Of a DNA stretch of 32,000 bases, positions 1 to 30,519 are shown piece after piece. The translations under genes were made by a program, and so were the position numbers. Source of the stretch: Promethearchaeum syntrophicum. Its GTDB lineage: Archaea > Asgardarchaeota > Lokiarchaeia > Sigyniarchaeales > Promethearchaeaceae. Every line of letters starts with the position of its first letter. Positions within the stretch are counted from its first letter, which is position 1. The stretch spans positions 2,040,001 through 2,072,000 of the forward strand of contig NZ_CP042905.2 of NCBI RefSeq assembly GCF_008000775.2, given 5' to 3'. The notes beneath the pieces were generated by a model. That model was not told the origin of the DNA, did no database searches, and was given only the letters and a program-made list of their open reading frames with translations.

Positions 1-485
1 TTTATGCCTCTGGTAAGAGAGAGCTCTTTTGAGTTTCCAATTATATCATTCTTAAGAAATTCAAATGCGTCGTCATTATCTAAAATATTTATATATTCCA
101 CTGGAGGTAATGAATTTTCCTCACGGGTGATTTTATACGCAGATTTCATATCAACAAATGATTTTTCACATTTGTCAATTTTTAAATCACCTTCTGACCT
201 AATACTGGTAATTTTCTCCGAAAGTAATTTTTCCCAAGCTGAAATAGGTTCATTGATCGTAATTTTCATTGGGCGATCATATACTTGAATTAAACCCAAT
301 TGTTTTAATAGACTGAAAATCTTATAGATTCTCTTAATTGATAAATCCAAATTATTTGCTAATTCTTTTGGATTGTCAATTGATTGGTTTTTCAGAAGAT
401 AATCATAGACGATTTCAACTCCTTTTTCTTTCACTTCAATTGAGCTGAAAATTTCAATCAAACTTGAAAATGAATTCTTCTCCAT
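1..485 (-). CDS. TrmB-like winged-helix transcriptional regulator. The 3' end runs off the window and the ORF is absent from the supplied track.
   Basis: Manual reverse-complement translation from the ATG at 485-483 stays open to position 3. It reads MEKNSFSSLIEIFSSIEVKEKGVEIVYDYLLKNQSIDNPKELANNLDLSIKRIYKIFSLLKQLGLIQVYDRPMKITINEPISAWEKLLSEK... The HTH-wing pattern resembles the TrmB N-terminal domain. A 21-nt purine-rich spacer (AGGATAGAAGGGATAATATAT) separates it from the stop of the upstream GTPase gene. Confidence 0.6.
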   Translation of the reverse strand, partial: MEKNSFSSLIEIFSSIEVKEKGVEIVYDYLLKNQSIDNPKELANNLDLSIKRIYKIFSLLKQLGLIQVYDRPMKITINEPISAWEKLLSEKITSIRSEGDLKIDKCEKSFVDMKSAYKITREENSLPPVEYINILDNDDAFEFLKNDIIGNSKELSLTRGI

Positions 486-5429: not shown

Positions 5430-6929
5430 TTGAAAATTATGTTATATAATAAAATTGAAGAAAAAGATGTCGAATTCTTTGAATCTGTCGTAGGTAAAAG
5501 GTTTGTTTCGGCCAATCCCGCTATTTGTGCAAGTTATTCAAGTAAATCAATAATGGGTCTTGAATCCCAAATTGCTGAAGCAGTAGTACGACCAAGATAC
5601 ACCAATGAAGTTCGAAATATTCTTATATGGTGTTCAGATCGAAGAATTCCGGTCACACCAGTTTCCGCTGGATTATCCGGTGGTTTTGCATGCCCCGTAT
5701 TTAAACCTGCGGGAGTCCATCTTGATATGAGCAGAATGGATCGAATTATCGAGATTGATGAAGACAATAGATACGTTGTAATCGAACCGGGAGTCACAAA
5801 CGGTGAGCTGTGGGCTTATATGAAGAAATATCACCCCGATTACATCCCTCCGATAGCTGACGGAGCACCTCCAGCTGCAACTGTTCTAGGAGACGGTATT
5901 GATAGAGGTTTCTCTTTGGTAACTAGCTCTATGGGGCCACAAGGAGAAATTTTTATGGGTGCTGAAGTTGTAATGCCTACAGGTGATATATTGAATTATG
6001 GTTCAATGGCGCTAAACGGTACTAAGCCGTTTTATAGATGGGGTTTAGGACCTGAATTGTTCTCAACTTTGATGGGTAGCCAAGGAACTATGGGTATCGT
6101 CACCAAAGGTGTAGTTAAAATATTCCCACACCCTCATTTTAAAACCGTTAAAGCATGGGCTATGGGAAATCCACAAGATATGCAAGATTTAACCCTTCAG
6201 ATCGGGAAACTTGAATTTGGGATCGCACATAATACTGTGATGGTTCAAGGTGGAAACTGGCCTCTGGTTATGACTCGCTGGCCAAAAGATAAGGTTCCTA
6301 ATGATTATTCATTTTATGAAAAAATTGGTATTCCTAAATGGTGGATGAATTGGGAGATTTGGGCAAATACACAAGAAGAGTTAGACTTTGTTTGTAAAAC
6401 TATTGATGAATATGCAATTAACTTTAAAAATTCAGACAAATGTCGAGAACCAGATGCTATTCGAGAATGGAAACTTCATCCAAAACAGATCGAATCACGT
6501 ATGAAAAAACCAAATAAAATTGCTGTGCCCTATAGTTGGTGGGAAGCTGGTTTTCTATTCATTACATGGTATACTCCATGGAATGAATGCGCTGAATTTG
6601 CGGAATACTATAACAGCATTCTCAAAAAATATGGGTTTGCCGAAGTTATGTGGATCGCTTCAATCGAACGATGCAGACAAGCTATCTGTATGCCAATCGT
6701 GTGCTTTGATAGTAGCAAACCTGATGATTTCATCAGAGTTCAGGATATGAATCGCGAAACGACGGAATATTGTCTAAAGAAGGGTTGGATAAATTACAGG
6801 CCTGATCCAAACATTCACGCACCATCAACCTACAGCATGGCCGGTACTTACCTTAAATATTTGCGAAAGGTCAAAGAAATGTTCGATCCGAATTATATCA
6901 TGCACCCAGGGAGGCTTATGCTACCATAG
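5430..6929 (+). CDS. FAD-binding (PCMH-type) oxidase/dehydrogenase, GlcD/D-lactate-dehydrogenase-like
   Basis: FAD_binding_4-like N-terminal half with PVTPVSAGLSGGF and GVTNGELW. The length of 499 aa fits. The true start may be the ATG at 5439 rather than the TTG at 5430. Confidence 0.8.
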   Translation: MKIMLYNKIEEKDVEFFESVVGKRFVSANPAICASYSSKSIMGLESQIAEAVVRPRYTNEVRNILIWCSDRRIPVTPVSAGLSGGFACPVFKPAGVHLDMSRMDRIIEIDEDNRYVVIEPGVTNGELWAYMKKYHPDYIPPIADGAPPAATVLGDGIDRGFSLVTSSMGPQGEIFMGAEVVMPTGDILNYGSMALNGTKPFYRWGLGPELFSTLMGSQGTMGIVTKGVVKIFPHPHFKTVKAWAMGNPQDMQDLTLQIGKLEFGIAHNTVMVQGGNWPLVMTRWPKDKVPNDYSFYEKIGIPKWWMNWEIWANTQEELDFVCKTIDEYAINFKNSDKCREPDAIREWKLHPKQIESRMKKPNKIAVPYSWWEAGFLFITWYTPWNECAEFAEYYNSILKKYGFAEVMWIASIERCRQAICMPIVCFDSSKPDDFIRVQDMNRETTEYCLKKGWINYRPDPNIHAPSTYSMAGTYLKYLRKVKEMFDPNYIMHPGRLMLP

Positions 6930-6945
6930 GTAGGGAGTGATTATC

Positions 6946-8373
6946 ATGGAACGATTAAGAGAATTAAAAGGTGATATTTACAAGTGCATTCATTGCAAAG
7001 CTTGTAGATTTTCATATAGTGGAGAACCAGATAAAGAAGGTTTAGGTGTACATGTTGGAACTCAAGGAGATGAAACTTTCTATGAAGGTATGGTTCAATC
7101 TTGCCCTGCTGGAATAGAATATGGCTGGGAAGCATATTGGAATGCAGGAAAAATCTGGATTGCACGTGCAGTATTAGAAGGTGACCTTGATTTAGTGAAA
7201 AATGGTCAAGATATTGCCGATGTAGTATATCCTTGTATTACTTGCGGAATGTGTGCTGCTCAATGTGAAAATCAAATTCGAACTGTTGAAATCATCGAGG
7301 CACTTCGGGCTGCCGTTATCGAAGCTGGCTTCAAACCCCTTGGCAAACATGCTTGGATGACGAATGCATCTAAAACCAAAGGTAATCCCTATGGTGGTGT
7401 GAAAGAAGAGCGAACTAAATGGGCTGTGGATGCTGGCTTTAAAGATATGATCAACAAAACAGGTACGAAAATTGCCTACTATGTCGGCTGTACGGCATCA
7501 TATCGTCAGAAAAACGTAGCAGCAGCGACGGTTGATTTAATGCAGAAACTGGGTTACGATATAACTTTATTAAAAGAGGAGCAATGTTGTGGCAGTCCAT
7601 TCTTCAGAACGGGTATTATGGATGAGGCATTACGATCTATGAATCATAATCTCGAAATTTTCAAAGATTTTGACCTATTAGTGTTTTCCTGCGCTGGTTG
7701 TTATCGTACTTTCACGATTGATTACATGAAGTGGGCTCCTGAAAAAGTTAAATATAAAACCATGCATGCAATGGAATTAATTTCGGAGATGGTACGTATG
7801 GGCAAAATTAAGTTCAAAGAACATCCAGATCTCAAAGGGAAAGTCGCCACATATCATGATCCTTGTCATACAGGAAGACATTATGGACTTTGGTATAAAG
7901 AGCGATTAATTGAGGAATCAAACAACATTATGATGGATATGCGCGCAATTAATAAAATTATTGATGATTGGTATGAAATTCCACGCCGAATTATAAAAGC
8001 TATCCCGGGACTCAAATTCAATGAAATGTACCGAATTAAAATGGATAGTTTTTGTTGTGGTGCAGGTGGTGGTGTTCGAGCCCAATATCCGGAATTCAGC
8101 GTACGAACAGCCCATCTTAGGATGGACGAAGGTGATGCAGTGGGTGCAGATTTTATGTTGACTGAATGTCCATTCTGTTGGCGTAATTTGGATGATGCTA
8201 ACACAGAATATAAACACGGAAAGAAGGTAATGACTATCTTAGAGATGATTTCAACCTACGATCTAATTGAAGATGCCTCAGCGATACGTATTGAAGATGC
8301 CTTGCGTGAGCACCATACCGAAACTCTTTTCCCTTCTGTTCAAAAGAAGAAGAAGAAAACCAAGAAAAAGTAA
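6946..8373 (+). CDS. Fe-S oxidoreductase with 2x[4Fe-4S] motifs and two CCG domains, GlcF/HdrD-like
   Basis: Cluster motifs are CIHCKAC...C and CITCGMCAAQC. CCG motifs are EEQCCGSPF, HDPCH and DSFCCGAGGG. I prefer the ATG at 6946 over the track's GTG at 6937 because GGGAGTGAT lies just upstream. The C-terminal tail is KKKKKTKKK. Confidence 0.8.
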   Translation: MERLRELKGDIYKCIHCKACRFSYSGEPDKEGLGVHVGTQGDETFYEGMVQSCPAGIEYGWEAYWNAGKIWIARAVLEGDLDLVKNGQDIADVVYPCITCGMCAAQCENQIRTVEIIEALRAAVIEAGFKPLGKHAWMTNASKTKGNPYGGVKEERTKWAVDAGFKDMINKTGTKIAYYVGCTASYRQKNVAAATVDLMQKLGYDITLLKEEQCCGSPFFRTGIMDEALRSMNHNLEIFKDFDLLVFSCAGCYRTFTIDYMKWAPEKVKYKTMHAMELISEMVRMGKIKFKEHPDLKGKVATYHDPCHTGRHYGLWYKERLIEESNNIMMDMRAINKIIDDWYEIPRRIIKAIPGLKFNEMYRIKMDSFCCGAGGGVRAQYPEFSVRTAHLRMDEGDAVGADFMLTECPFCWRNLDDANTEYKHGKKVMTILEMISTYDLIEDASAIRIEDALREHHTETLFPSVQKKKKKTKKK

Positions 8374-9502: not shown

Positions 9503-10375
9503 ATGACTAATCAGCAATATCGAAAAATAAAATTAGTGAAAAGAAGCCGTCAAGTAATGGAAGGGGCAGGAGTGCGATTGAAACGTGCTTTCGGTAGTCC
9601 TAACGATGCATTTTTTTTTGATCCGTTTTTATTATTAGACGATTTTCACTCGGACAAGCCGAAAGATTATCTTAAAGGATTTCCGTGGCATCCGCACAGA
9701 GGAATTGAAACAATAACTTATATGTTACATGGCGAAGTAGAACATCAAGATAGCTTAGGGAATAAGGGAATGATCTGTCAAGATGAAGTTCAGTGGATGA
9801 CAGCTGGAAGTGGAATAATCCATTCAGAAATGCCTAAACAACAAGAAGGTATACTTTGGGGGTTTCAACTTTGGGCAAATTTACCCGCTGTTGATAAGAT
9901 GATGAAACCTCGTTATAGGGATATAAGCAGTGATCAAATCTGTTTAGTACGGAGGGAGGATGGAACAAAAATTCGAGTGATTGCAGGAGAAGTTGATGGG
10001 TTCAAAGGACCGGTGACAGATGTTATAATCGATCCTCAATATTTAGATGTACAACTCCCTGCTCATTCTGAATTTATACAAAAAGTTCCAAGAAGTCATA
10101 CAGTATTTGCTTATGTTATTGAAGGAGAAGCCAGATTTGACCAATTTCATAATGACCTACTAGGAATAGAACAGATAGTATTATACGAAAAAAATACTGT
10201 AGGTAGAGTAAAAATTCAAACTGATAGTCATCCTGTTAGATTCTTGTTAATATCTGGAAAACCATTAAATGAACCAATTGCTTGGAATGGTCCAATTGTG
10301 ATGAATACGAGGGAAGAACTGAATACCGCTTTTCATGAATATAACAATGGCACATTTTTAAAATACAAGAACTAA
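9503..10375 (+). CDS. Pirin-family bicupin protein
   Basis: HPHRGIETITYMLHGEVEHQDSLGN carries the cupin metal-ligand pattern. Also present are VQWMTAGSGIIHSE and LWANLP. Length is 290 aa. Confidence 0.88.
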   Translation: MTNQQYRKIKLVKRSRQVMEGAGVRLKRAFGSPNDAFFFDPFLLLDDFHSDKPKDYLKGFPWHPHRGIETITYMLHGEVEHQDSLGNKGMICQDEVQWMTAGSGIIHSEMPKQQEGILWGFQLWANLPAVDKMMKPRYRDISSDQICLVRREDGTKIRVIAGEVDGFKGPVTDVIIDPQYLDVQLPAHSEFIQKVPRSHTVFAYVIEGEARFDQFHNDLLGIEQIVLYEKNTVGRVKIQTDSHPVRFLLISGKPLNEPIAWNGPIVMNTREELNTAFHEYNNGTFLKYKN

Positions 10376-10392
10376 TGTTGCTAGAATAGTGG

Positions 10393-10402
10393 TTTTTTTT
10401 TT
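10393..10402 (+). terminator. T10 tract, a putative terminator after the pirin gene
   Basis: A run of 10 T about 18 nt after the stop at 10375. Confidence 0.3.
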
Positions 10403-10503
10403 AATTTTAATGGTTATTTAATTGAATTTACAAATGAAAAGTGATGAAATTCAAAAAATTAGTTAAAAAACATTATAATAGCATTTTGTAGATAATTATT
10501 ATT

Positions 10504-11640
10504 ATGTATAAGGCTATCCCTCAATATCGAAAATTGCAGCAACACTTGGATAAGCTCCCTATTGGATATCCAGAAACGGAATCTGGAGTTGAAATTCGGA
10601 TTTTACAGCATTTATTTACTACAGAAGAAGCCGAAATTGCAATTGACTTAGATCTAATGCCCACTACCGCTGAAAAACTTCATAAACGGATAAAGAACTC
10701 CAATTATTCAGTTGATGATCTAGAAGAAAAACTTGATAAAATGGCTGATAAAGGAGCTATTAACCGACATGTAAAAAAAAATGGTTTGAGACTTTTTAGT
10801 AGTGCTTTATTGGCTATTGGAATGTTTGAATTCCAAGTTGACAGGATGACCAAAGAATTTTATTCCGACTTTTTACAGTACCTGGACGAAGCTTTTCGTG
10901 ATGAAATTTTAAGTACACGAATCCCTCAACTACGAACTATCCCAACTGAAGGTTCTATTGCTCCTGATTTGCCCATTATGACATATGATAACATTAGAGA
11001 TATTATTTCTTCATATAAGGGGCCTATTGCGGTAGCGAATTGTGTTTGTAAGCAAGGAAATGATCTCCTTGGAGAACCCTGTCATCAAACGAAAATGAGA
11101 GAAATTTGTTTTACATTCGGGAGTTCTGCGCGCAAATTTATAAGCGAAGGATTAGGTAGAAGTATCGATAAAGAAGAAACGTTTAAAATCCTTAAACAAG
11201 CTGAAAAAGACGCTTTAGTTCTACAACCTTCAAATACTGAAGTTCCATTCTGTCTGTGTCTATGTTGTGGATGCTGTTGTGAGATTTTAACAAGTGCTAA
11301 ACCACTAGAAAATCCCGTTCAGTATTTTGCGACAAATTATCGGGCAATAATTGATACAGAAACATGTATTGGTTGTGGTGTATGTGAAACGCGATGTCAA
11401 ATGGATGCCATTTCAATTGTAGATGATAAAAGCGTCATTGATTATGAACGATGCATTGGATGTGGACTGTGTATTACTTCATGCCCTGAAGAAGCGATGA
11501 AATTAGAACATGTAGAACATACAAAAAAGCCACCAAAAAATGGTGTAGAGTTATATATGAATATATTGAGAAAGAAAGTAGGAAATGCAAAATACATCAT
11601 TATGTTAACAAAACAGTGGTTTGGGTCAAAATTTAACTAA
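10504..11640 (+). CDS. Cys-rich Fe-S protein, paralogue 1, with a C-terminal 2x[4Fe-4S] ferredoxin domain
   Basis: Ferredoxin motifs are CIGCGVCETRC and CIGCGLCITSCP. Additional Cys motifs are CVCKQG...C and FCLCLCCGCCCE. By eye it is roughly three-quarters identical to the ORF at 14855-15994. Confidence 0.7.
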   Translation: MYKAIPQYRKLQQHLDKLPIGYPETESGVEIRILQHLFTTEEAEIAIDLDLMPTTAEKLHKRIKNSNYSVDDLEEKLDKMADKGAINRHVKKNGLRLFSSALLAIGMFEFQVDRMTKEFYSDFLQYLDEAFRDEILSTRIPQLRTIPTEGSIAPDLPIMTYDNIRDIISSYKGPIAVANCVCKQGNDLLGEPCHQTKMREICFTFGSSARKFISEGLGRSIDKEETFKILKQAEKDALVLQPSNTEVPFCLCLCCGCCCEILTSAKPLENPVQYFATNYRAIIDTETCIGCGVCETRCQMDAISIVDDKSVIDYERCIGCGLCITSCPEEAMKLEHVEHTKKPPKNGVELYMNILRKKVGNAKYIIMLTKQWFGSKFN

Positions 11641-11689
11641 TTTTTTAAAAATTTGATAAATTATTCATAATAAATTGAATTTGATCAAT

Positions 11690-12487
11690 ATGTATACGGT
11701 TGGAATTGACATTGGAAGCCTAGCAACAAAAATAGTGCTTTTAAGTGAGGGGAAAATTATAGCGATGATACAAAATCGCTCTTTACATAACTTTAGTGCA
11801 ATTGGAACCCAATTATTCAACCAAATTTTAGAAGAAAATAACCTTACTAATGGTGATATTGGAAATATTTACTCTACAGGATATGGAAGACATTCTATTC
11901 CCAATTTAACATCAAATATCGTAACAGAAATTTCTGCACACGCCCGAGGGGCACAATATTTTCATCCCAAAGTCCAAAGTATTATCGATATTGGCGGTCA
12001 AGATAGTAAGGTTATCAAAATAAATCCTAAATCGTTAAAAGTGATCGATTTCCAAATGAACGATAAATGTGCTGCAGGAACAGGTCGATTTTTAGAAGTG
12101 ATGGCAAATGCTTTAGACATCCCCATTGAGGATCTTGGAAATTTAGCTCTGGAAAGTAATTCTCCCGTACAGATCTCTTCAACTTGTACTGTGTTTGCTG
12201 AATCAGAAGTTATTGGACAATTTGCCCAAGGGGCGGCAAAACATGATATTGCAGCAGGAATTCATAATTCTATTGCAAAAAGAATTGCATCTATGGCAAA
12301 ACGGATTCAAGGTGTTGAGCCCATTGTATTTTGTGGAGGTGTCGCTTTAAATCCCGCGGTTAAAATTGCTTTAGAAAATGAATTAAAATTAAAATTAATT
12401 GTCCCCAAATATCCTCAATATACCGGAGCAATTGGAGCAGCTCTTATTGCTAAAGAAAAATTCAAAAATGGGAGTAAAATTCTTTGA
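11690..12487 (+). CDS. BcrAD/BadFG/HgdC-type ATPase, the activase of 2-hydroxyacyl-CoA dehydratase / benzoyl-CoA reductase-type enzymes
   Basis: The ASKHA fold motifs are GIDIGSLATK, DIGGQDSKVI, NDKCAAGTGRFLE and GGVALN. I prefer the ATG at 11690 (MYTVGIDIGS) over the track's TTG at 11675. Confidence 0.85.
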   Translation: MYTVGIDIGSLATKIVLLSEGKIIAMIQNRSLHNFSAIGTQLFNQILEENNLTNGDIGNIYSTGYGRHSIPNLTSNIVTEISAHARGAQYFHPKVQSIIDIGGQDSKVIKINPKSLKVIDFQMNDKCAAGTGRFLEVMANALDIPIEDLGNLALESNSPVQISSTCTVFAESEVIGQFAQGAAKHDIAAGIHNSIAKRIASMAKRIQGVEPIVFCGGVALNPAVKIALENELKLKLIVPKYPQYTGAIGAALIAKEKFKNGSKIL

Positions 12488-13527
12488 AAACATTTGCGTA
12501 TTTTGATAGTTCTCATGAATTTCCAGAAGAAATTATAATTGCCGCTCAAATGAATCCATATAAAATTTTAGGGAAAAATGATTTTTCTACGGAATTAGCA
12601 GATCAATACATTCCACAATTTATGTGTGCAAATGCTAGAAGTTTTTTGAATCAAGCGTTAGAAGAATCCTCTAAATGGGAAGGAATTGCAATTGCACACG
12701 GTTGTGACGCAACGAATCGCCAATTTGATATATGGGAACAGCACGTTCAAACACCTTTTCTTTATTATATCCACAATCCGTTAAGAACAGATAGAATTGC
12801 TCAACGATTTTTTATTCGAGAAATCAAAGCGATGATCAATGCATTAGAATCTAAATATCGCATTAAAATCACTTTAGATCAACTTGAAAAGGCAATCCAA
12901 GTATCGAATAATATTAAGATATTGTTGCAGAGTTTATCCCAATTACGAATAATAAAAGATATTTCTAATTCTGAGTATTTCAATGTAGTTAAATATTGTG
13001 TACAAAATCCAAAAGAAGAAATAATTTCATATCTCAACTCTATTTTGTCAGATTGGAAAACGAGAAATTCATTTCCGATTAATAAGATCCCCATATTTTT
13101 AACGGGATCTGATATAACTCATGCTTTATGGTATGAATTATTAGAAAAAGTAAACCTTAGAGTAGTTAGGGATGATCTTACAATAGGAGAGCGATATTTT
13201 GCAACTTTGATCCCGACTGATAAAGATCCAATATCAAATATCGCGAAATATTATTTGAATATTCCCCGTTCTTCTACAAAGCATCCTACAAATCCCCGTA
13301 TTAATTATATTCTGAAAGCATGCAAAAGCGAGAAAATTCATGGAGTTGTATCCCAAATTATAAAATATTGTGAGACTTTTGCATATGATGTTCCATTCTT
13401 AAAATCTCAATTAGAAGTTATTCACATACCAGTAATTCATGTCGAACGAGAATTTACGGAAAATATTGATCAGCAAATTTCAACTCGATTAGAAGCTTTT
13501 GTAGAACTTTTAGAACAAAACCGTTAA
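12484..13527 (+). CDS. 2-hydroxyacyl-CoA dehydratase / BcrC-BadD-HgdB family subunit (smaller)
   Basis: Its position is immediately after the activase, with a 4-nt TTGA start/stop overlap. The N-terminus AYFDSSHEFPEEIIIAAQMNPYKILG is typical of the family. Conserved Cys are present (HGCDATN, KYCETF). The family assignment is by eye. Confidence 0.65.
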   Translation: MKTFAYFDSSHEFPEEIIIAAQMNPYKILGKNDFSTELADQYIPQFMCANARSFLNQALEESSKWEGIAIAHGCDATNRQFDIWEQHVQTPFLYYIHNPLRTDRIAQRFFIREIKAMINALESKYRIKITLDQLEKAIQVSNNIKILLQSLSQLRIIKDISNSEYFNVVKYCVQNPKEEIISYLNSILSDWKTRNSFPINKIPIFLTGSDITHALWYELLEKVNLRVVRDDLTIGERYFATLIPTDKDPISNIAKYYLNIPRSSTKHPTNPRINYILKACKSEKIHGVVSQIIKYCETFAYDVPFLKSQLEVIHIPVIHVEREFTENIDQQISTRLEAFVELLEQNR

Positions 13528-13544
13528 AATAGGAAAAAACTAAC

Positions 13545-14843
13545 ATGACTGCTAATTCTTCAACTCATCCTCCTCGGAAATTAGTAAAAACTCTCAAGAG
13601 CTCTAAAGATATTGGTAATTTAATAAAATGGTATATGCTAAAAGCTAAAATTGCAGAATTATTACCGTGGAAAAAATCAGCATGGATTACTTCCTCAACA
13701 TCAGTAGAATTACTCTGGGGATTTGACATTTTTCCATTGCACCCGGAAAACAATGCTTGCATTGCCGGAGCAAGGAAAATTTCGCAAGATTTGATTGAAC
13801 ATGCTGAAAGTTTAGGATATTCTCGTGATATTTGCTCGTATATGAAAACTAATGTAGGGGCTTTTGATAAAAAGATAAGTATTCAAATGGGTGGTATCGC
13901 AAAACCTGATTTTGTGGTAACCTCAGGAACTATCTGTGATACTCATGTAAAATGGTTTCAAAATCAAGCGCGAAGAATGGATGTACCAATTTATGTTTTT
14001 GATGTGCCTCATATTGTCAATAATACTTCAAGATCCACAAAAAATCGATATAAGGGATATGTAATTGATCAAATTTATGATTTCTTTGATTTTGTTGAAG
14101 ATACTGTGGGGAAGAAATTAAATGAAAAAAAATTGATAAAAACATGGCAAAATTCTCATCGATTAACCGATCTTTGGCAAAAAATTTATAATTACCGCAA
14201 AAAAGTTCCATCTCCTATCGGATTTGCTGATACTTTAGGAGATATCTTTCCTTTAGTTATATTGCCAGGAATTAAAAAAGGGATCAAGTATTTTGAAAAT
14301 ATTCTTAAAGAAGTAGAAGAAGATGTTGCTTTAGGGAAAGGAATATTACCAAAAGAAGAAGAAAAATACCGATTAATGTTTGAGGGAATACCAATGTGGT
14401 ATAGGATTAAGTTTTTTCATCAACTGATGAATTATGGAGCCGTTGTGACTTATGAACCTTATACTTTTTCTTTTGGGCCTTATCGCCCTTATGTGGATAA
14501 TCTAGAAGATGGGTTAAATGTGATGGCAGAACATTTAATGTATCAACCTTATATCTATAATTTATCAGATCGAATTGCGTATTTTAAAGATGTTATCAAA
14601 CAATATCATATTGATGGTGTGTTATTGCATGAAAATATGAGCTGTCGACCATCGTGTACAGGGCTGTACGATCTTAAACAAAAAATTCAACAAGATTTAG
14701 GAATTCCCGTTTTATTGTTTACTTGTGATATGAATGATCCCCGTGCTTATGCAGCGGAACAAATGCAAACTCGTATCGAAGGTTTTATGGAAGTTTTAGC
14801 GCAAAACAAAAAATATTCAAAAATTCAAAAAGCTTTAGATTGA
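13545..14843 (+). CDS. 2-hydroxyacyl-CoA dehydratase / HgdA-BcrB family subunit (larger)
   Basis: 432 aa. Family-like segments are FDIFPLHPENNACIAGA, DICSYMK and GTICDTHVKW. It lies in the same operon. Confidence 0.65.
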   Translation: MTANSSTHPPRKLVKTLKSSKDIGNLIKWYMLKAKIAELLPWKKSAWITSSTSVELLWGFDIFPLHPENNACIAGARKISQDLIEHAESLGYSRDICSYMKTNVGAFDKKISIQMGGIAKPDFVVTSGTICDTHVKWFQNQARRMDVPIYVFDVPHIVNNTSRSTKNRYKGYVIDQIYDFFDFVEDTVGKKLNEKKLIKTWQNSHRLTDLWQKIYNYRKKVPSPIGFADTLGDIFPLVILPGIKKGIKYFENILKEVEEDVALGKGILPKEEEKYRLMFEGIPMWYRIKFFHQLMNYGAVVTYEPYTFSFGPYRPYVDNLEDGLNVMAEHLMYQPYIYNLSDRIAYFKDVIKQYHIDGVLLHENMSCRPSCTGLYDLKQKIQQDLGIPVLLFTCDMNDPRAYAAEQMQTRIEGFMEVLAQNKKYSKIQKALD

Positions 14844-14854
14844 TTAATATTATA

Positions 14855-15994
14855 ATGCAAACTACAACTTCCCAATATCGAAAATTACAGCAACATCTTG
14901 ATAGACTCCCAATAGGATTCCCAGAAACGGAATCAGGAGTCGAAATACGAATTTTACAACATTTATTTACTCCAGAAGAAGCAGAAATTGCCGTTTTCCT
15001 TAATCTACTCCCTGAAAAAATACAAAAAATCAATAAACGATTAAAAAAGAAAAAAAAAAATCTGACAGAATCTGAACTTGAAAAAGTCTTAGATAACCTT
15101 AATGAAAAGGGAGCCATAAGTCGACATATAACACAAGACGGGACTAAATATTTTAGTATTGCCATGTTAGCTATTGGAATGTTTGAATTTCAAGTTAACC
15201 GTATGACCAAAGAATTTTATACAGATTTCGCGCAATATTTAGAAGAAGCATTCCGAGATGAATTTTTAAGCACCCGAATCCCCCAATTAAGGACTATTCC
15301 AACCGAAGGAAGCATTACCCCAGAATTACCTATTATGACATATGATAACATTCGCCATATAGTTACAAATTATAATGGTCCAATTGCTGTAACAAATTGT
15401 GTTTGTAAACAAGGTCAGGATATGCTTAATAATCCATGTAAACAAACGAAAATGAGAGAAATTTGTTTTATTTTTGGCAGTGCCGCTCGCAAATATGCAG
15501 AATCCGATTGGGGCAAAGTATTAACCAAGGATGAAGCATTTGAAATTCTCAAACAAGCCGAAAAGGATGGATTAGTTTTACAACCTTCAAATACTGAAAA
15601 AATTTTTTGCTTATGTCTATGCTGTGGGTGCTGTTGTGAAATTTTAACAAGCGCTAAACCACTAGAAAATCCCGTTCAGTATTTTGCAACCAATTATCGG
15701 GCAATAGTAAATATAGAAACATGTATAGGCTGCGGTATTTGTGAAAATCGATGTCAAATGGATGCAATTTCAATTGAGGATGGAAAAAGTGTTATTGATT
15801 ATAGTCATTGTATTGGTTGTGGGCTATGTGTAACTTCATGCCCTCAAGAAGCCATGAAATTGGAACATGTGGGGCATCAAAGAAAACCACCAAAAAACAC
15901 CGGATTACTTTATATGAGTATCCTCAGGAAAAAAATTGGAAATGCGAAATTTATTATTATGCTCACAAAACAATTGTTTGGAAAAACTTTTTAA
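14855..15994 (+). CDS. Cys-rich Fe-S protein, paralogue 2
   Basis: Collinear with 10504-11640 and with the same motifs (CVCKQG, FCLCLCCGCCCE, CIGCGICENRC, CIGCGLCVTSCP). An identical DNA run, aaaccactagaaaatcccgttcagtattttgc, occurs in both copies. I prefer the ATG at 14855 because it aligns with the paralogue's start; the track's TTG is at 14840. Confidence 0.7.
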   Translation: MQTTTSQYRKLQQHLDRLPIGFPETESGVEIRILQHLFTPEEAEIAVFLNLLPEKIQKINKRLKKKKKNLTESELEKVLDNLNEKGAISRHITQDGTKYFSIAMLAIGMFEFQVNRMTKEFYTDFAQYLEEAFRDEFLSTRIPQLRTIPTEGSITPELPIMTYDNIRHIVTNYNGPIAVTNCVCKQGQDMLNNPCKQTKMREICFIFGSAARKYAESDWGKVLTKDEAFEILKQAEKDGLVLQPSNTEKIFCLCLCCGCCCEILTSAKPLENPVQYFATNYRAIVNIETCIGCGICENRCQMDAISIEDGKSVIDYSHCIGCGLCVTSCPQEAMKLEHVGHQRKPPKNTGLLYMSILRKKIGNAKFIIMLTKQLFGKTF

Positions 15995-16002
15995 CATTTT
16001 TT
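15969..16002 (+). repeat. Copy 1 of a 34-bp direct repeat, at the native 3' end of Fe-S paralogue 2
   Basis: aacaattgtttggaaaaactttttaaCatttttt recurs at 16929-16962 with a single C/T difference. Confidence 0.85.
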
Positions 16003-16005
16003 TTT
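15997..16005 (+). terminator. T9 tract, a putative terminator after Fe-S paralogue 2
   Basis: A run of 9 T starting 3 nt after the stop codon at 15992-15994. Confidence 0.3.
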
Positions 16006-16042
16006 AGGAATTTTTTTAGCAATGAATATTTAACACTAAATT

Positions 16043-16747
16043 ATGATTGAATATTTCGTTTATTTCTTCCAATTGTTGCTTGTCTGTGGTGCATTTTTTA
16101 TTTCATTTACTCTTCTAAAACAGAATAAAAAATACCTTGGGAATCAATTGTTATCTGCTTCTCTAGGACTTGTTGGCATATATGCACTCTTGCTATTCAT
16201 CTATAAAGTTCTAAACAGTGCCACTCTTCTTCAAATTTGCATTAGAATTGGATTTTCTGCTTTATTATTCTCAGTATTTCTTCTATTTTGTACAATTCAA
16301 GTTCTTATGTATTCTTCTGTTATATTTAAAACAAAAAAAATGAAATTAATAATTTTCTTCTTGTTAGCACTAAGCATCTCAATAATTCTATTTGTTTCGG
16401 ATTGGATTTTAGTACAAAATGAGGATATCACAACTATGGAATATTATATGCCTGTATTTATAGCTTTCGCAGGATATATTGCATTTATGCTGATCTATTC
16501 ATCGATTACTCTTTATATATTTGGAATAAGAAAAAATACCGGTAAATCCAAACAATATATGTGGTTTTTCTTTATAGGGCTTGTATTTATGATTTTAGGT
16601 TTGGTAACAGAAGGTTTGGGTTCTGCAATTGAAGGTTTGGCTGGATTATTCGATATGCTGTTGTTTATTTGTTTATCTATCGGTGTGATTTTCATGGCAT
16701 TATCTTTATTGAGAAAAAAAGAGAAGAGTAATTTAGCTTCTAACTGA
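16043..16747 (+). CDS. Seven-TM membrane protein, paralogue of 25015-25713
   Basis: Seven hydrophobic helices by eye. Landmarks shared with the other copy include LLKQNKKYLGNQ versus ILKRDSSYKGNQ and VLMYSSVIFKTKKMKLIIF versus IFIYSTTWLKFKTQKIIF. Confidence 0.55.
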   Translation: MIEYFVYFFQLLLVCGAFFISFTLLKQNKKYLGNQLLSASLGLVGIYALLLFIYKVLNSATLLQICIRIGFSALLFSVFLLFCTIQVLMYSSVIFKTKKMKLIIFFLLALSISIILFVSDWILVQNEDITTMEYYMPVFIAFAGYIAFMLIYSSITLYIFGIRKNTGKSKQYMWFFFIGLVFMILGLVTEGLGSAIEGLAGLFDMLLFICLSIGVIFMALSLLRKKEKSNLASN

Positions 16748-16778
16748 AAAAAATAAATAAATCAATAAAAAAACGGCG

Positions 16779-16930
16779 AGATTTGGGTAACTTTTTGCAT
16801 AAGTAATCATGAAATTCCCATGTTTACGAAATTCCGTCATTTTTCCCAAATATTCAATTCTTGGCTAACCCAATAAGCCTTAATTTTTTAAACATACCTA
16901 TTTTTTCCATCTCTACGCTCGAATTCAGAA
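16779..16930 (-). pseudogene. Truncated relic covering the last ~17 codons plus 3' UTR of the HesB/IscA-like gene; it is copy A of a ~150-bp repeat
   Basis: Aligns with 18686-18836 with a few substitutions and indels. The stop TAA has become TTA. The copy ends abruptly at ...gaattcagaa, where the 34-bp repeat begins. Confidence 0.65.
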
Positions 16931-16962
16931 CAATTGTTTGGAAAAACTTTTTAATATTTTTT
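16929..16962 (+). repeat. Copy 2 of the 34-bp direct repeat, an ectopic duplicate of the 3' end of Fe-S paralogue 2
   Basis: aacaattgtttggaaaaactttttaaTatttttt, compare 15969-16002. Confidence 0.85.
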
Positions 16963-17195
16963 AAAAAAAATTGAATAGATAGCTAAGCTAAGAAAAATAA
17001 AATTATCATTAAAAAAGATAAAATTAAGGATGCTTCTTGAACAAATATCATAAATTTCCTAGGCATTTAGAACGATTAAGTGACTATTATCAATTGATTT
17101 GATGAATAATGTTCTTTTAGAAGATAATTTATAAAAAGTTTAAATATTAAATGAAACAAAGGAAAAATATTACAGTAATCCAAATGTGATAAAAA

Positions 17196-18569
17196 ATGAT
17201 AAATACTATCCAAAAAAAATTCCATCCAATCGCAAGAAATTTAACCATTTTAATTATTATTATCCAAATTTTATCGATAAGTCAAATAATATTTTGGTTT
17301 CAATTAAAGCAAGAATTAACTGAATTACCAATTCTTATTTTTACTATACCCTTTCTTCTACATCTGATTTTTCTTTTCATTTCAATCTCCTCTTTAAAAA
17401 AGAATCCTTTGGATTTTCCAAAATTTTCATTAATAATATTTTTGATTGCTTTAAGTATTTCATTAATATTTAGTAGATATGGCTTTTTTGAAACGGATCC
17501 TGACATTCGGCTACATAATCTCCTAATTATAATCTTTATTTTTTATATCATTTGCATTATTGTCTATTTAATTATTTTATTCGTAAATCTGATAGAAAAG
17601 AACCAATTAATTGAGACTTTTCTTGAAGATCAAGTAGAAATGAACATAAATTCACACAAATCGATAGATTTCAATAATGCAGAAAAAATTTTAGCTATTA
17701 ACATTATAAAAATAATTAATCGAATTTTCGAGCAAAAAAGAATTAAAATATGGTGGATAAATAAAGTATATTCTGATTCTCTTTATGATTTTAATTCCAA
17801 TCACTCAAAAATATTTATAATAATCCCTAATGTGGTCAAATACTTTGCGGAAAAAGCCAAAATTGATGAAAAAATTAAATTTGATGATGTTTCTTCAGAA
17901 TTAAATCTAAGTTCTTACGCACTCAAGAAGCTTCTCCAATATTTACGTGATAAATCAATATGTAATTTAAATTTAAGCCAAGATAATATGTACATTGATT
18001 TCGGTCGTTTTGTAAAAGATCAAATTGTAGATTTATCAATTCAAAATCTGGCTTCTTCTTCACCAATTCCTAATGATAATAATATTAGTAATCCAATATA
18101 TAAACAGAAAGAAGTTCAACAAAAAAGCAAAATTACTGCAGGTCTTTTTGGTATATTCCTTGGTGATTTTGGAATCCATCATTTCTATCTAGGAAACATC
18201 AGCAAAGGAATTCTTATGCTTGTTTTTTGCTGGACAGGAATCCCCGGTATTATAGGTTTAATTGAAGGAATTATGATTTTAGGCTCGTCAGATCAAGAAT
18301 TTGAAAATAAATATATTATTCTTTCTTCAAGTGCGAACTATTCTCAGAAAATTACGAATTATCATAATAATCGATCTCAATCCTCATCAAATTCAAATCT
18401 AATAAATACAGCTACTATACCATCCTCAGAGAATTTGAACCAAGATAAAAATTCAAGAGTTTCTCCTACTCTTTCAATTAAAAACTCTTTTTGTCCAAAA
18501 TGTGGAAGGAAATTAGATGGATGGTTTGAATTCTGCCCACAGTGCGGATTAAAACTACCGAATAATTAA
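17196..18569 (+). CDS. Multi-pass membrane protein with a TM2 domain and a C-terminal zinc ribbon
   Basis: The TM2-domain signature is GLFGIFLGDFGIHHFYLGNISKGILMLVFCWTGIPGIIGLIEG. The C-terminus is CPKCGRKLDGWFEFCPQCG. The N-terminal third is strongly hydrophobic. Confidence 0.6.
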   Translation: MINTIQKKFHPIARNLTILIIIIQILSISQIIFWFQLKQELTELPILIFTIPFLLHLIFLFISISSLKKNPLDFPKFSLIIFLIALSISLIFSRYGFFETDPDIRLHNLLIIIFIFYIICIIVYLIILFVNLIEKNQLIETFLEDQVEMNINSHKSIDFNNAEKILAINIIKIINRIFEQKRIKIWWINKVYSDSLYDFNSNHSKIFIIIPNVVKYFAEKAKIDEKIKFDDVSSELNLSSYALKKLLQYLRDKSICNLNLSQDNMYIDFGRFVKDQIVDLSIQNLASSSPIPNDNNISNPIYKQKEVQQKSKITAGLFGIFLGDFGIHHFYLGNISKGILMLVFCWTGIPGIIGLIEGIMILGSSDQEFENKYIILSSSANYSQKITNYHNNRSQSSSNSNLINTATIPSSENLNQDKNSRVSPTLSIKNSFCPKCGRKLDGWFEFCPQCGLKLPNN

Positions 18570-26461: not shown

Positions 26462-27433
26462 TCAACCGTTCAGTTGTTTAGTCTTCTCTTCATCATCCAC
26501 TAAAATTCCTCTTAGAATTTCGTAAATCTCGTTGTATGATTGCTCAAAGAAATTGAATTGGTCAATTACAACGGCTTCATCGTGTTCCTCGAGTATTAGC
26601 AAAACGAAGAATAACAATCCTTCGATATCAAAAGATTGGATTACTCCCGATACTTTTGTTGCCCAATCAAGTCTATCAGAAAATTCGTAAGAATTCATAT
26701 TACCATCCAAAATTCGTCTCTGAACTATTTCGTAAAGGGTTAAAATCTTCTTCTTCATGGTTAATGTGAGGTTTTCAAGGAAGTAACTACCAATCTCGAT
26801 TCCATTTTGCTCAAACACTAATAAAGCCATCACATTTTCCATTTTATCGACAATATCGAGTAAAAATTTCTGAACAGCTTCATTTTGGGTATATAACATT
26901 GAAATTCCACGACTAAAAGCTTGAATAATGGTATGGATCTCGAATATATTAGATTTGTAAAAACCCATTTTGAATTTTTCTAACCATGGGCGAATACGGT
27001 GCTTTACTATTCCCATATTCTTTAAAATGGTTGGATCTTCACCAATCTTTGGATCACATTTATGGAGACAAACCACAATTGGAGCATCTATCTTATTTTC
27101 TTCAAAGAATTCCAGAACCTCGTCAAGATATGCAATAGCACTATCAAATCGAAGACTATCTTGAATATCAATAACATATATCAATAAATCAATCCCGCTA
27201 AGATAGCGCATTTTATTTTTTAAATATTCATCCATATAGTGCTTTTGTCCACCAAAATCATGTAAATAAATCAAATGGTCCATAAAAGTCACGCTTGAGC
27301 GTTCTATCTTCTTCGTTGGTTTGAGTCCTTTAACCGCTTCCGGGACATCGAATTTTTTTCTCATTGCAGTAAGAATAGATGTTTTTCCAGCATTGTCAAG
27401 CCCTAGTAGAGCAATTTTTTTATCTGAAACCAT
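26462..27433 (-). CDS. Rag/Gtr-like GTPase with a C-terminal roadblock-like domain
   Basis: G1 is GLDNAGKTS and G3 is HDFGGQ. G4 is LHKCD, that is HKxD as in RagA/Gtr1 rather than NKxD. About 140 aa follow with an alpha/beta pattern. The length of 323 aa is similar to eukaryotic Rag proteins. Confidence 0.75.
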   Translation of the reverse strand: MVSDKKIALLGLDNAGKTSILTAMRKKFDVPEAVKGLKPTKKIERSSVTFMDHLIYLHDFGGQKHYMDEYLKNKMRYLSGIDLLIYVIDIQDSLRFDSAIAYLDEVLEFFEENKIDAPIVVCLHKCDPKIGEDPTILKNMGIVKHRIRPWLEKFKMGFYKSNIFEIHTIIQAFSRGISMLYTQNEAVQKFLLDIVDKMENVMALLVFEQNGIEIGSYFLENLTLTMKKKILTLYEIVQRRILDGNMNSYEFSDRLDWATKVSGVIQSFDIEGLLFFVLLILEEHDEAVVIDQFNFFEQSYNEIYEILRGILVDDEEKTKQLNG

Positions 27434-29985: not shown

Positions 29986-30519
29986 TTATTTTCCTTGCTC
30001 CGTTAGTATTTTTATTTTTTTTTGAGTATATCTCATTAAAGTCGAAATTAATTCAATCATCAACGCCTGGTTCTTTGGATCGATTGCAACCATAGGATAT
30101 GTTTTTATTTTTAATAGGTCTTCAACACGATCAGGGGTCATATGCCCTTTAAGATCTTGTTTGTTAGCTAGACACACAATTTCACATAGATCATCATCGA
30201 TTAGATTTCTTGCGTGATCGATAATTTCCATCGTCGAAAGAACATTTTTTGGAGTCGAATCAGTAACAATAAAGATCAAATCCGAACCATGGATATATTT
30301 ACTGAGTTGTTGTTTGATGAATGCTTTTTGACCTCCAAAGTCCCAGATCTTGAAAGGATTTATGTTTGGGTCGTTTAAAGTTGCCAAATTAAAACCCATT
30401 GTAGGATTATATCTTCCTGTGATTAATTGCCCACGGATCATTTTAGAGATAGTAGTTTTACCTGTAGCTGGTGCTCCGACAAGACTGATTTTTGCAAATT
30501 TTGCAAATTTTTGATCCAT
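29986..30519 (-). CDS. Arf-like small GTPase
   Basis: G1 is GAPATGKTT. G3 is WDFGGQ, the Arf-type WDxGGQ. G4 is ANKQDL, the Arf-type NKQD. Length is 177 aa. Confidence 0.8.
   Translation of the reverse strand: MDQKFAKFAKISLVGAPATGKTTISKMIRGQLITGRYNPTMGFNLATLNDPNINPFKIWDFGGQKAFIKQQLSKYIHGSDLIFIVTDSTPKNVLSTMEIIDHARNLIDDDLCEIVCLANKQDLKGHMTPDRVEDLLKIKTYPMVAIDPKNQALMIELISTLMRYTQKKIKILTEQGK

Follow-up and report, generated by a model that had tools for sequence, protein, structure and literature searches.

Do genes that stand tightly packed in one genome also work together? The question is raised by a locus of Promethearchaeum syntrophicum MK-D1, which lies in a stretch of 32,000 nucleotides (nt) of contig NZ_CP042905.2 that was analyzed as a whole and is called the window here. 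At this locus, an activase gene and the genes for a small and a large catalytic subunit, together called the cassette, are flanked by two paralogous genes for large iron-sulfur (Fe-S) proteins, FeS-1 and FeS-2. The five genes of this cassette unit correspond to QEE16586 to QEE16590. A preliminary description of the locus, made from the sequence, had proposed the flanking proteins as electron donors of the activase. The explanation that we prefer is composite: a cassette of the 2-hydroxyacyl-CoA dehydratase (HAD) type, to which Fe-S proteins were added in one lineage, with a plausible relay role that would be dispensable or replaceable. We see the case for this composite reading as evenly poised.

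Activase and catalytic subunits

The three central genes had been read as an activase followed by a two-subunit radical enzyme, with hidden Markov model (HMM) searches against PF01869 and PF06050 proposed as the check. Both families were recovered, which bears out this reading: the activase matches PF01869 at 4e-62, and the proteins of 347 and 432 amino acids (aa) match PF06050 at 8e-66 and 2e-74, respectively. The activase scores 274 bits with TIGR00241 ('acyl-CoA dehydratase activase', cutoff of 125), and its best PDB matches are HadI (224 bits) and HgdC (223 bits). Cys127 and Cys166, within the motifs NDKCAAGTG and SSTCTVFAESE, both align with HadI and are the predicted ligands of a [4Fe-4S] cluster that bridges the subunits. 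One PF01869 gene is in the unit, and no other was found elsewhere in the 32-kb window. The large subunit matches HadB with 173 bits, BzdO with 151, MbdO with 121, and the double-cubane cluster protein (DCCP) with 51, while the small subunit matches HadC with 89.5 bits, BzdN with 84, and DCCP with 70.

The HAD, BzdNO, and DCCP branches of the superfamily are told apart by their clusters and ligand sets (PMC11971306). BzdN and DCCP carry an [8Fe-9S] double cubane on six Cys, which in BzdN are Cys36, Cys73, Cys100, Cys263, Cys293, and Cys327; BzdO and the HAD alpha subunits carry a [4Fe-4S] cluster on three Cys, and the HAD beta subunits retain three Cys (PMC11971306). We therefore counted Cys in an alignment of 68 small and 83 large subunits from the cassette clade. 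Only C48, C74, and C296 are invariant in the small subunit, where they align with the Cys of HadC, and only C97, C131, and C367 are invariant in the large subunit, where they align with those of HadB. Among the 68 small subunits, the BzdN Cys263 position is Ser, Thr, or Gly, the Cys293 position is Pro or Ser, and no Cys precedes residue 48, so an equivalent of Cys36 is missing as well. In pairwise alignments, the small subunit of the window has Thr or Ser where BzdN and DCCP carry their additional Cys, and only the equivalents of BzdN Cys73, Cys100, and Cys327 are kept.

The preliminary description had held that the catalytic subunits could equally belong to the double-cubane branch. This double-cubane or benzoyl-CoA reductase (BCR) assignment was rejected on the Cys census. 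Three invariant Cys per subunit, with no Cys at three of the [8Fe-9S] ligand positions, argue for an enzyme of the HAD type. The cassette very probably encodes an ATP-driven radical enzyme of this type, primed by one electron, and each catalytic subunit is predicted to hold one [4Fe-4S]-type cluster on exactly three Cys. Its reaction would be a dehydration, by extrapolation from the ligand pattern alone.

The equivalog HMMs set a bound on this assignment. The HadB model gave 206 bits (cutoff of 750), the HadC model 126 (cutoff of 700), and the double_cubane model NF040772 gave 144 and 92 bits (cutoff of 350), the former being the top NCBIfam match of the small subunit. Because every equivalog model was far below its cutoff, the cassette is not the orthologue of any characterized enzyme, and it is a new, uncharacterized member of the HAD/BCR superfamily that shares the HAD ligand type.

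Linkage of the Fe-S genes with the cassette

The neighborhoods were surveyed from both sides within a radius of 10 kb. On the Fe-S side, 81 loci from other genomes were used, with Fe-S proteins 38-63% identical to FeS-1, from Promethearchaeota, Hermodarchaeota, Chloroflexota, Acidobacteriota, Bacteroidota, Spirochaetota, Desulfobacterota, and other groups. An activase or HGD-D gene was present within 10 kb of the Fe-S family member in none of the 81 loci. When all open reading frames (ORFs) within 3.5 kb were clustered across the same loci, no neighbor recurred in more than six. The Fe-S family gene is normally stand-alone.

On the cassette side, homologues of the large subunit with 43-61% identity were found in Lokiarchaeia, Sigyn-, Hod-, and Thorarchaeota, Spirochaetota, and Desulfobacterota. 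The order small then large is kept in all 80 related metagenome loci where the contig shows both genes, and an activase lies within 10 kb in 21 of the 80, none of these 21 with an Fe-S gene. A single locus (L148) of the 80 has an Fe-S family member within 10 kb of the cassette; the two are 950 nt apart, with an ORF on the opposite strand between them, and this proximity is compatible with chance.

Linkage was seen in close relatives. The five-gene order was found again in L173, which belongs to another genome bin of Promethearchaeum ('Prometheoarchaeum_2') and has a large subunit that is 88% identical; there, pirin, FeS, activase, small, large, and FeS genes follow one another as in the window; because the same order recurs there, the arrangement is not due to chance. 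L088 shows the small and large subunits, a FeS-2-type gene, and then the same downstream genes as the window. L089 has the small and large subunits, a FeS-1 gene that is preceded by its own spacer and has lost ~89 nt internally, a 110-nt activase remnant, and an intact FeS-2. The segment 1740-4230 of L089 is a decayed second copy of the unit, and its activase remnant matches window positions 11782-11890.

The other relatives have one component without the other. In L178 (84% identical), the order is pirin, activase, small, and large, with an Fe-S gene on neither side, and in L174 (82% identical), the three-gene cassette lies in an unrelated context with no adjoining Fe-S gene. L082, whose Fe-S protein is 78% identical to FeS-1, is collinear with the window over 20 kb and has one Fe-S gene, without the cassette and without the pirin gene. 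The more distant Fe-S relatives P0009, P0010, P0011, and a Lokiarchaeum ossiferum protein (63-68% identical) have no cassette nearby.

The preliminary description had made its proposal depend on the co-occurrence of the Fe-S family with activase or dehydratase genes in other genomes. This is mostly refuted by the counts of 0/81 and 1/80, as linkage is confined to the Promethearchaeum-level relatives L173, L088, and L089. Given these counts and this confinement, the Fe-S proteins are not a general partner of such cassettes, and the arrangement of activase, HGD-D, and Fe-S genes is lineage-specific rather than a new conserved system. A local role as electron donors is possible. Thus, the proposed donor function fails as a general partnership, also on account of L174 and L178, and a local relay stays plausible.

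Paralogue history and rearrangement of the locus

The synonymous divergence (dS) of FeS-1 and FeS-2 is 1.29, with a ratio of nonsynonymous to synonymous divergence (dN/dS) of 0.15, so the split is old and both copies are under purifying selection. The split predates the sampled species. In a neighbor-joining tree, FeS-1 of the window groups with the upstream protein of L173, P0001, L089_a, L082, and P0002, and FeS-2 groups with the downstream protein of L173, L088, L089_b, P0005, and P0008; both clades are found in several relatives. The closest outgroup of the FeS-2 clade is P0009 with P0010 (72-75% identity), whose contigs (L084/L085, L090-L092) look bacterial, with genes for LolA, a lipid-A acyltransferase, MMPL, and GntR. 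This grouping makes inter-domain transfer a possible origin of FeS-2 instead of tandem duplication in place; FeS-2 may have arrived in this way, as judged from the neighbor-joining tree only.

The preliminary description had also suggested that the direct repeats drive excision or amplification of the cassette, and that identity along the paralogues be scanned for gene conversion. No conversion tract was found: the proportion of synonymous differences (pS) never fell below 0.36, its lowest values (0.36-0.38) lie in the protein-invariant codons 256-300, long identical tracts are missing, and the 35-nt identical run lies within a protein-invariant stretch. Chimeric Fe-S genes were sought as the footprint of excision or amplification and rejected, as 21 diagnostic sites revealed no block pattern in L082, P0002, or L089_a. 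With the readable junctions lying outside the repeats, repeat-driven excision or amplification is not borne out. At 74% identity and with perfect matches of at most 35 nt, the FeS repeats are poor substrates for homologous recombination.

The cassette locus is nevertheless dynamic and prone to rearrangement. In L178 (5952-6008, aligned to window 10474-10530 and 11661-11717), the activase ORF directly follows the spacer that precedes FeS-1 in the window. FeS-1 starts with MYKA and the activase with MYTV, both ORFs opening with ATGTATA, and the junction fits a deletion between these two 7-nt repeats by which FeS-1 would have been lost.

Transcription signals

T-runs and TATA-like elements were read by eye. 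In the spacer between pirin and FeS-1, a T10 run at 10393-10402 follows the pirin stop codon, and it is likely an archaeal terminator for pirin. The A/T-rich stretch upstream of FeS-1, ending in ...ACATTATAATAGCATTTTGTAGATAATTATTATT-ATG, is promoter-like. This pirin-side spacer is kept up to the ATG in L173 and L178, and in L178 it leads directly into the activase. Downstream of FeS-2, the T9 and T7 runs are likely the transcription end of the unit. The activase, small, large, and FeS-2 genes of MK-D1 look co-transcribed, and FeS-1 may be transcribed with the cassette or separately. A scan with models of sigma-70 promoters and intrinsic terminators, which are bacterial and unsuited to an archaeon, gave no signal over shuffled background.

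Electron relay or mere adjacency

In the composite reading, the homodimeric activase would carry its [4Fe-4S] cluster bridged by Cys127 and Cys166 and would take up one low-potential electron. With ATP hydrolysis, it would inject this electron into the heterodimer, in which each of the paralogous subunits would hold one cluster on three Cys. The free iron site of the large-subunit cluster would bind the substrate and start ketyl-radical chemistry, and the electron would be recycled after turnover. The Fe-S paralogues, from a stand-alone family, would have come into the transcription unit of the cassette in the Promethearchaeum lineage, where they would pass electrons of the ferredoxin pool on to the activase. 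Such a relay is the most plausible local role for FeS-1 and FeS-2; since the cassettes of some close relatives have no Fe-S genes beside them, it would be dispensable or replaceable. A functional link at this locus is hinted at by the common strand of all five genes, the 11-nt spacing between the large subunit and FeS-2, the T-runs that lie outside the unit, the L178 arrangement in which the pirin-side spacer serves the activase, the occurrence of both paralogue clades in several relatives, and the purifying selection on both paralogues. Archerases are known to be reduced physiologically by ferredoxin and flavodoxin (PMC7317905), and MK-D1 makes reduced ferredoxin from 2-oxoacids (PMC7015854).

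Several observations weigh against the composite reading. The close relatives L174 and L178, with large subunits 82-84% identical, keep the cassette without an adjacent Fe-S gene. In the window, the 49-nt spacer between FeS-1 and the activase has a T6 run right after the stop codon and a TATA-like TTCATAATAAAT; it is conserved in L173 and may contain a second promoter as well as a weak terminator. In L173, L088, and L089, 75-113 nt separate the large-subunit gene from FeS-2, compared with 11 nt in MK-D1, so the tight coupling is specific to MK-D1. The cassette clade is unaccompanied by CoA-transferase or acyl-CoA-metabolism genes, and the equivalog models for HadB, HadC, BzdN, BzdO, BcrB, BcrC, and DCCP all stay far under their cutoffs. 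Finally, dehydratases use their electron catalytically and recycle it, so it is not evident that even one dedicated donor would be needed, much less two.

The alternative that survives best denies any functional link. Adjacency would then be historical, a resident Fe-S gene having been duplicated and a mobile three-gene cassette inserted or rearranged, and the Fe-S proteins would do an unrelated housekeeping redox job. The independence of the Fe-S family at the family level (0/81, 1/80, and no shared neighbors) agrees with this, as do the single FeS-1 gene of L082 in the same genomic context, the different context of the L174 cassette, the clean deletion of FeS-1 between ATGTATA repeats in L178 (where FeS-2 is missing too), and the decayed second unit of L089. 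However, linkage survives in four of the six clade cassette loci despite the rearrangements, the genes share a strand with tight spacing in MK-D1, both paralogues are under purifying selection, and a ferredoxin-domain protein is a biochemically sensible partner of an activase. We regard the absence of a link as doubtful, though as a contender of real weight.

It is quite improbable that the ~380-aa Fe-S proteins are dedicated, obligatory donors of this activase class in place of a small ferredoxin or flavodoxin. Their position in MK-D1 and L173 and their 2x[4Fe-4S] domain would suit such donors; as a general rule, however, the idea is largely refuted by the neighborhood surveys. Co-occurrence outside the genus is 0/81 and 1/80, the L174 and L178 cassettes lack Fe-S genes, and none of the ~21 of 80 related cassettes with an activase nearby has one.

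The Fe-S protein family

The preliminary description had called the flanking products Cys-rich, multi-cluster Fe-S proteins, and the family alignment agrees. Seventeen Cys are invariant or nearly so: four from C180 to C202, five at C252, C254, C255, C258, and C259 (C257 being listed as well), and eight in the ferredoxin domain. The latter (C288, C291, C294, C298 and C317, C320, C323, C327) are invariant, form two CxxCxxCxxxC(P) motifs, and fall within matches to Fer4 families, giving a 2x[4Fe-4S] domain. FeS-2 carries all 17. The nine Cys of the preceding domain follow the pattern CxC-x10-C-x8-C ... CxCCxxCC.

Matches to known families (Pfam, NCBIfam) are confined to residues 280-335, and the N-terminal ~280 aa (window 10504-11340 and 14855-15690) form an unannotated family core. 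A word-indexed search returned 4,331 family matches, and the N-terminal 275 aa as a query matched 2,384 clusters (representatives at 50% identity), of which 989 had E <= 1e-10. Nearly all matches have 350-400 aa with an unchanged architecture, and archaeal and bacterial members are ~50% identical over the full length. The names 'RnfB' and 'DUF362 domain-containing' given to FeS-2 and its relatives have no HMM match behind them. Neither PF04015 (DUF362) nor PF04060 (the RnfB N-terminal domain) was found in the FeS proteins at E <= 0.01, and RnfB models match the ferredoxin domain alone, with 33-38 bits against cutoffs of 69-252.

A confident AlphaFold model (pLDDT of 92.8, pTM of 0.89) was obtained from an alignment of 73 sequences. 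In a Foldseek search of the whole-protein model against the PDB, the ferredoxin domain alone had matches (root-mean-square deviation, rmsd, of 1-2 A). The N-terminal model gave weak winged-helix matches for residues ~1-100 (Fur, MarR, PadR, RPC62), those to Fur, MarR, and PadR having E values of 0.05-0.2 over ~80 columns at an rmsd of 3-4 A. No relative of the Cys-rich domain was found among PDB structures with this model. A profile of the N-terminal domain against all PDB sequences gave nothing significant, the best match being SlyA (E 0.76). One domain fusion was seen among the top 150 representatives: P0286 (817 aa), in which a FAD amine-oxidase/NAD_binding_8 domain is fused to a complete Fe-S family module. 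The fusion is a hint at electron transfer for flavoenzymes as the task of the module.

The winged helix invites the proposal that the Fe-S proteins are redox-sensing regulators, which would control the cassette in an Rrf2/MarR-like manner through winged helix and clusters. The resemblance of the N-terminal ~100 aa to Fur, MarR, PadR, and SlyA and the absence of conserved neighbors would fit a regulator, but the structural and sequence matches are not significant, and the putative recognition helix is acidic (SVDDLEEKLDKMADKG) and the least conserved part of the protein. A full-length identity of ~50% between archaea and bacteria is unusual for a transcription factor, and the bona fide ferredoxin domain, with the rare fusion to a FAD oxidoreductase, points to electron transfer. 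A regulatory role thus seems hardly probable. Even less credit is due to the proposal that the catalytic pair is an ATP-dependent reductase of the BCR/DCCP branch whose need for stoichiometric electrons explains the large Fe-S donors; the top NCBIfam rank of the double_cubane model (144 bits, cutoff of 350) and the second PDB ranks of BzdO and BzdN favor it, but no member of the clade has Cys at three of the six [8Fe-9S] ligand positions, one ATPase gene is present where BCRs have two different ones, the two subunits are distinct where DCCP is homodimeric, and the top PDB scores belong to HadB and HadC.

Substrate and clade neighbors

No CoA-transferase gene was found in the 32-kb window, and neither a CoA-transferase nor an acyl-CoA dehydrogenase recurs among the 80 cassette-clade loci. 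A 2-Hacid_dh gene lies 9 kb downstream and is syntenic in the cassette-free L082. The commonest neighbors in the clade are TudS/DUF1722, MgsA, a PALP enzyme, a deaminase, and an AMP-binding enzyme. In 19 of 82 cassette-clade loci (L113-L147 and others among L093-L172), the HAD-like pair is divergently oriented beside a TudS/DUF1722 gene (TudS being 2-thiouracil desulfurase, PF04463), often with MgsA, a PALP enzyme, and a TadA-like deaminase. TudS is a one-domain relative of the BCR/HAD fold (PMC11971306), and its proximity to the HAD-like pair may reflect synteny within a single bacterial lineage. Reading the substrate from these neighbors was given up, as TudS/DUF1722, MgsA, PALP, and the deaminase are probably synteny of this kind.

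Significance

The cassette adds an uncharacterized, Asgard-rich clade to the HAD/BCR radical-enzyme superfamily, with a cluster type settled by sequence. The analysis also exposes a very large, well-conserved, and unannotated Fe-S family, whose Cys-rich domain has no Pfam or PDB relative. MK-D1 is cultured, so the sole lineage in which this family shares an operon-like unit with a known electron-consuming enzyme is open to experiment. A true local link would give access to what the entire family does; otherwise, the locus is a clear example of misleading tight gene adjacency in a single genome.

A bolder interpretation is that the family is a new class of multi-cluster redox proteins, of which two specialized copies were recruited in Promethearchaeum as the dedicated relay of an archerase and its HAD-type enzyme. 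The priming electron might come from one copy and be accepted or buffered by the other. We consider this interpretation unlikely. If true, it would be the first large dedicated redox partner for such an activase and would provide an initial clue to the function of a family that thousands of anaerobes possess.

Gene layout and neighboring genes

All five ORFs are on the plus strand, in the order and at the coordinates first described (Table 1). The reported junctions were reproduced as well: a TTGA overlap at 12484-12487, 17 nt between 13527 and 13545, and 11 nt between 14843 and 14855. The flanking genes, described as collinear and about three-quarters identical by eye, share 275 of 379 aa (73%) with two gaps, and their DNA is 73.8% identical over 1134 aligned positions. 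Identical runs of at least 30 nt had been noted; the longest has 35 nt from 11296, and the quoted 32-mer occurs twice exactly, at 11299 and 15656.

Table 1. Features of the cassette unit in nucleotide positions of the window, with the parts of FeS-1 in residues.
Feature	Position	Strand	Remarks
Spacer pirin/FeS-1	10376-10503	+	T10 run, A/T-rich promoter-like stretch
FeS-1	10504-11640	+	QEE16586.1, 378 aa
FeS-1, winged helix (modeled)	residues ~1-100		
FeS-1, Cys-rich domain	residues ~160-275		C180, C182, C193, C202; C252, C254, C255, C258, C259
FeS-1, 2x[4Fe-4S] ferredoxin domain	residues 280-335		
FeS-1, basic helical hairpin			C-terminal
Spacer FeS-1/activase	11641-11689	+	49 nt; T6 run, TATA-like element
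Activase	11690 (ATG) or 11675 (TTG) to 12487	+	QEE16587, 265 aa from ATG; archerase ATPase
Small (beta-type) HGD-D subunit	12484-13527	+	347 aa; PF06050
Large (alpha-type, catalytic) HGD-D subunit	13545-14843	+	QEE16589.1, 432 aa; PF06050
FeS-2	14855 (ATG) or 14840 (TTG) to 15994	+	QEE16590.1, 379 aa; FeS-1 paralogue
T9 and T7 runs	15997-16017	+	directly 3' of the FeS-2 stop codon

The five genes are already annotated, but only generically. The database names are '4Fe-4S binding protein' for QEE16586.1, '2-hydroxyacyl-CoA dehydratase subunit D' for QEE16589.1, and 'DUF362 domain-containing protein' for QEE16590.1. The cassette locus is not discussed in the main text or supplements of the MK-D1 description (PMC7015854), and a literature search returned no paper on HAD enzymes in Asgard archaea. 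The gene table in the supplement of PMC7015854 lists further BadF/BcrAD-type ATPase genes of MK-D1, DSAG12_00083, 00446, and 00448 (COG1924 and COG3580), so the cassette of the window is not the sole archerase-type system in the genome. One of these three genes adjoins CoA-transferase and acyl-CoA dehydrogenase genes.

The pirin gene (9503-10375) is the upstream neighbor of the unit in the window, L173, and L178, is missing from L082, and is separated from the unit by the T10 run. Farther upstream (5430-8373), a FAD_binding_4 protein stands beside a CCG/Fer4_8 protein (TfrB/GlcF-like, with a Lys-rich tail KKKKKTKKK); the pair, a 2-hydroxyacid dehydrogenase module resembling GlcD/GlcF, is found in syntenic position in both L082 and L173, regardless of the presence of the cassette. 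Downstream, a very A+T-rich block (16043-18569, GC 23-28%) holds a polytopic membrane ORF and a TM2/zinc-ribbon protein; it is largely missing from L082 and L088 and marks an indel adjoining the unit. Three eukaryote-like small GTPases, of the Ras/Roc, Gtr1/RagA-like, and Arf-like families, lie at 507-1046, 26462-27433, and 29986-30519, all on the minus strand. Small GTPases of eukaryote-like families are typical 'eukaryotic signature' genes of Asgard archaea.

Comparison with known systems

HadBC with HadI of C. difficile (PDB 3o3m, 4eht) and HgdAB with HgdC come closest. They likewise have one PF01869 activase with two bridging-cluster Cys and two adjacent PF06050 paralogues with three Cys each at equal positions, and the Had and Hgd proteins are the best PDB matches for all three cassette proteins. 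However, the cassette subunits score merely 173 and 89.5 bits with HadB and HadC, the gene order is activase-small-large in a cluster without a CoA-transferase, and the clade members come from Asgard archaea, Spirochaetota, and Desulfobacterota.

Class I benzoyl-CoA reductases (BzdNOPQ and MbdNOPQ; PDB 8s02, 9g87) belong to the same superfamily as the cassette. The [4Fe-4S]-OH2 site of BzdO (Cys95, Cys128, Cys380) has three corresponding Cys in the large subunit, and a ferredoxin gene is a usual part of BCR clusters, a likeness to the present locus. Unlike BzdN, the small subunit lacks the ligands Cys36, Cys263, and Cys293, so an [8Fe-9S] cluster would not be possible; BCRs also have two different ATPase subunits (BzdPQ, BcrAD), whereas the cassette has one ATPase gene, and the match scores are lower. 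Like the cassette, DCCP and its reductase (PDB 6eno, 7yyl) pair a protein of the PF06050 fold with an ATPase of the archerase type. The two subunits of the DCCP homodimer have six Cys each, whereas the cassette has two different subunits with three Cys each, and DCCP is the weakest PDB match of the large subunit (51 bits).

Among electron carriers, FeS-1 and FeS-2 share the canonical 2x[4Fe-4S] domain (residues 280-335) with small 2x[4Fe-4S] ferredoxins, polyferredoxins, and RnfB-type proteins, a group of known or annotated carriers that also includes flavodoxin. In contrast to small ferredoxins, they have ~375 aa and contain, in addition, a winged helix and a 9-Cys domain, neither of which has Pfam, NCBIfam, or PDB relatives.

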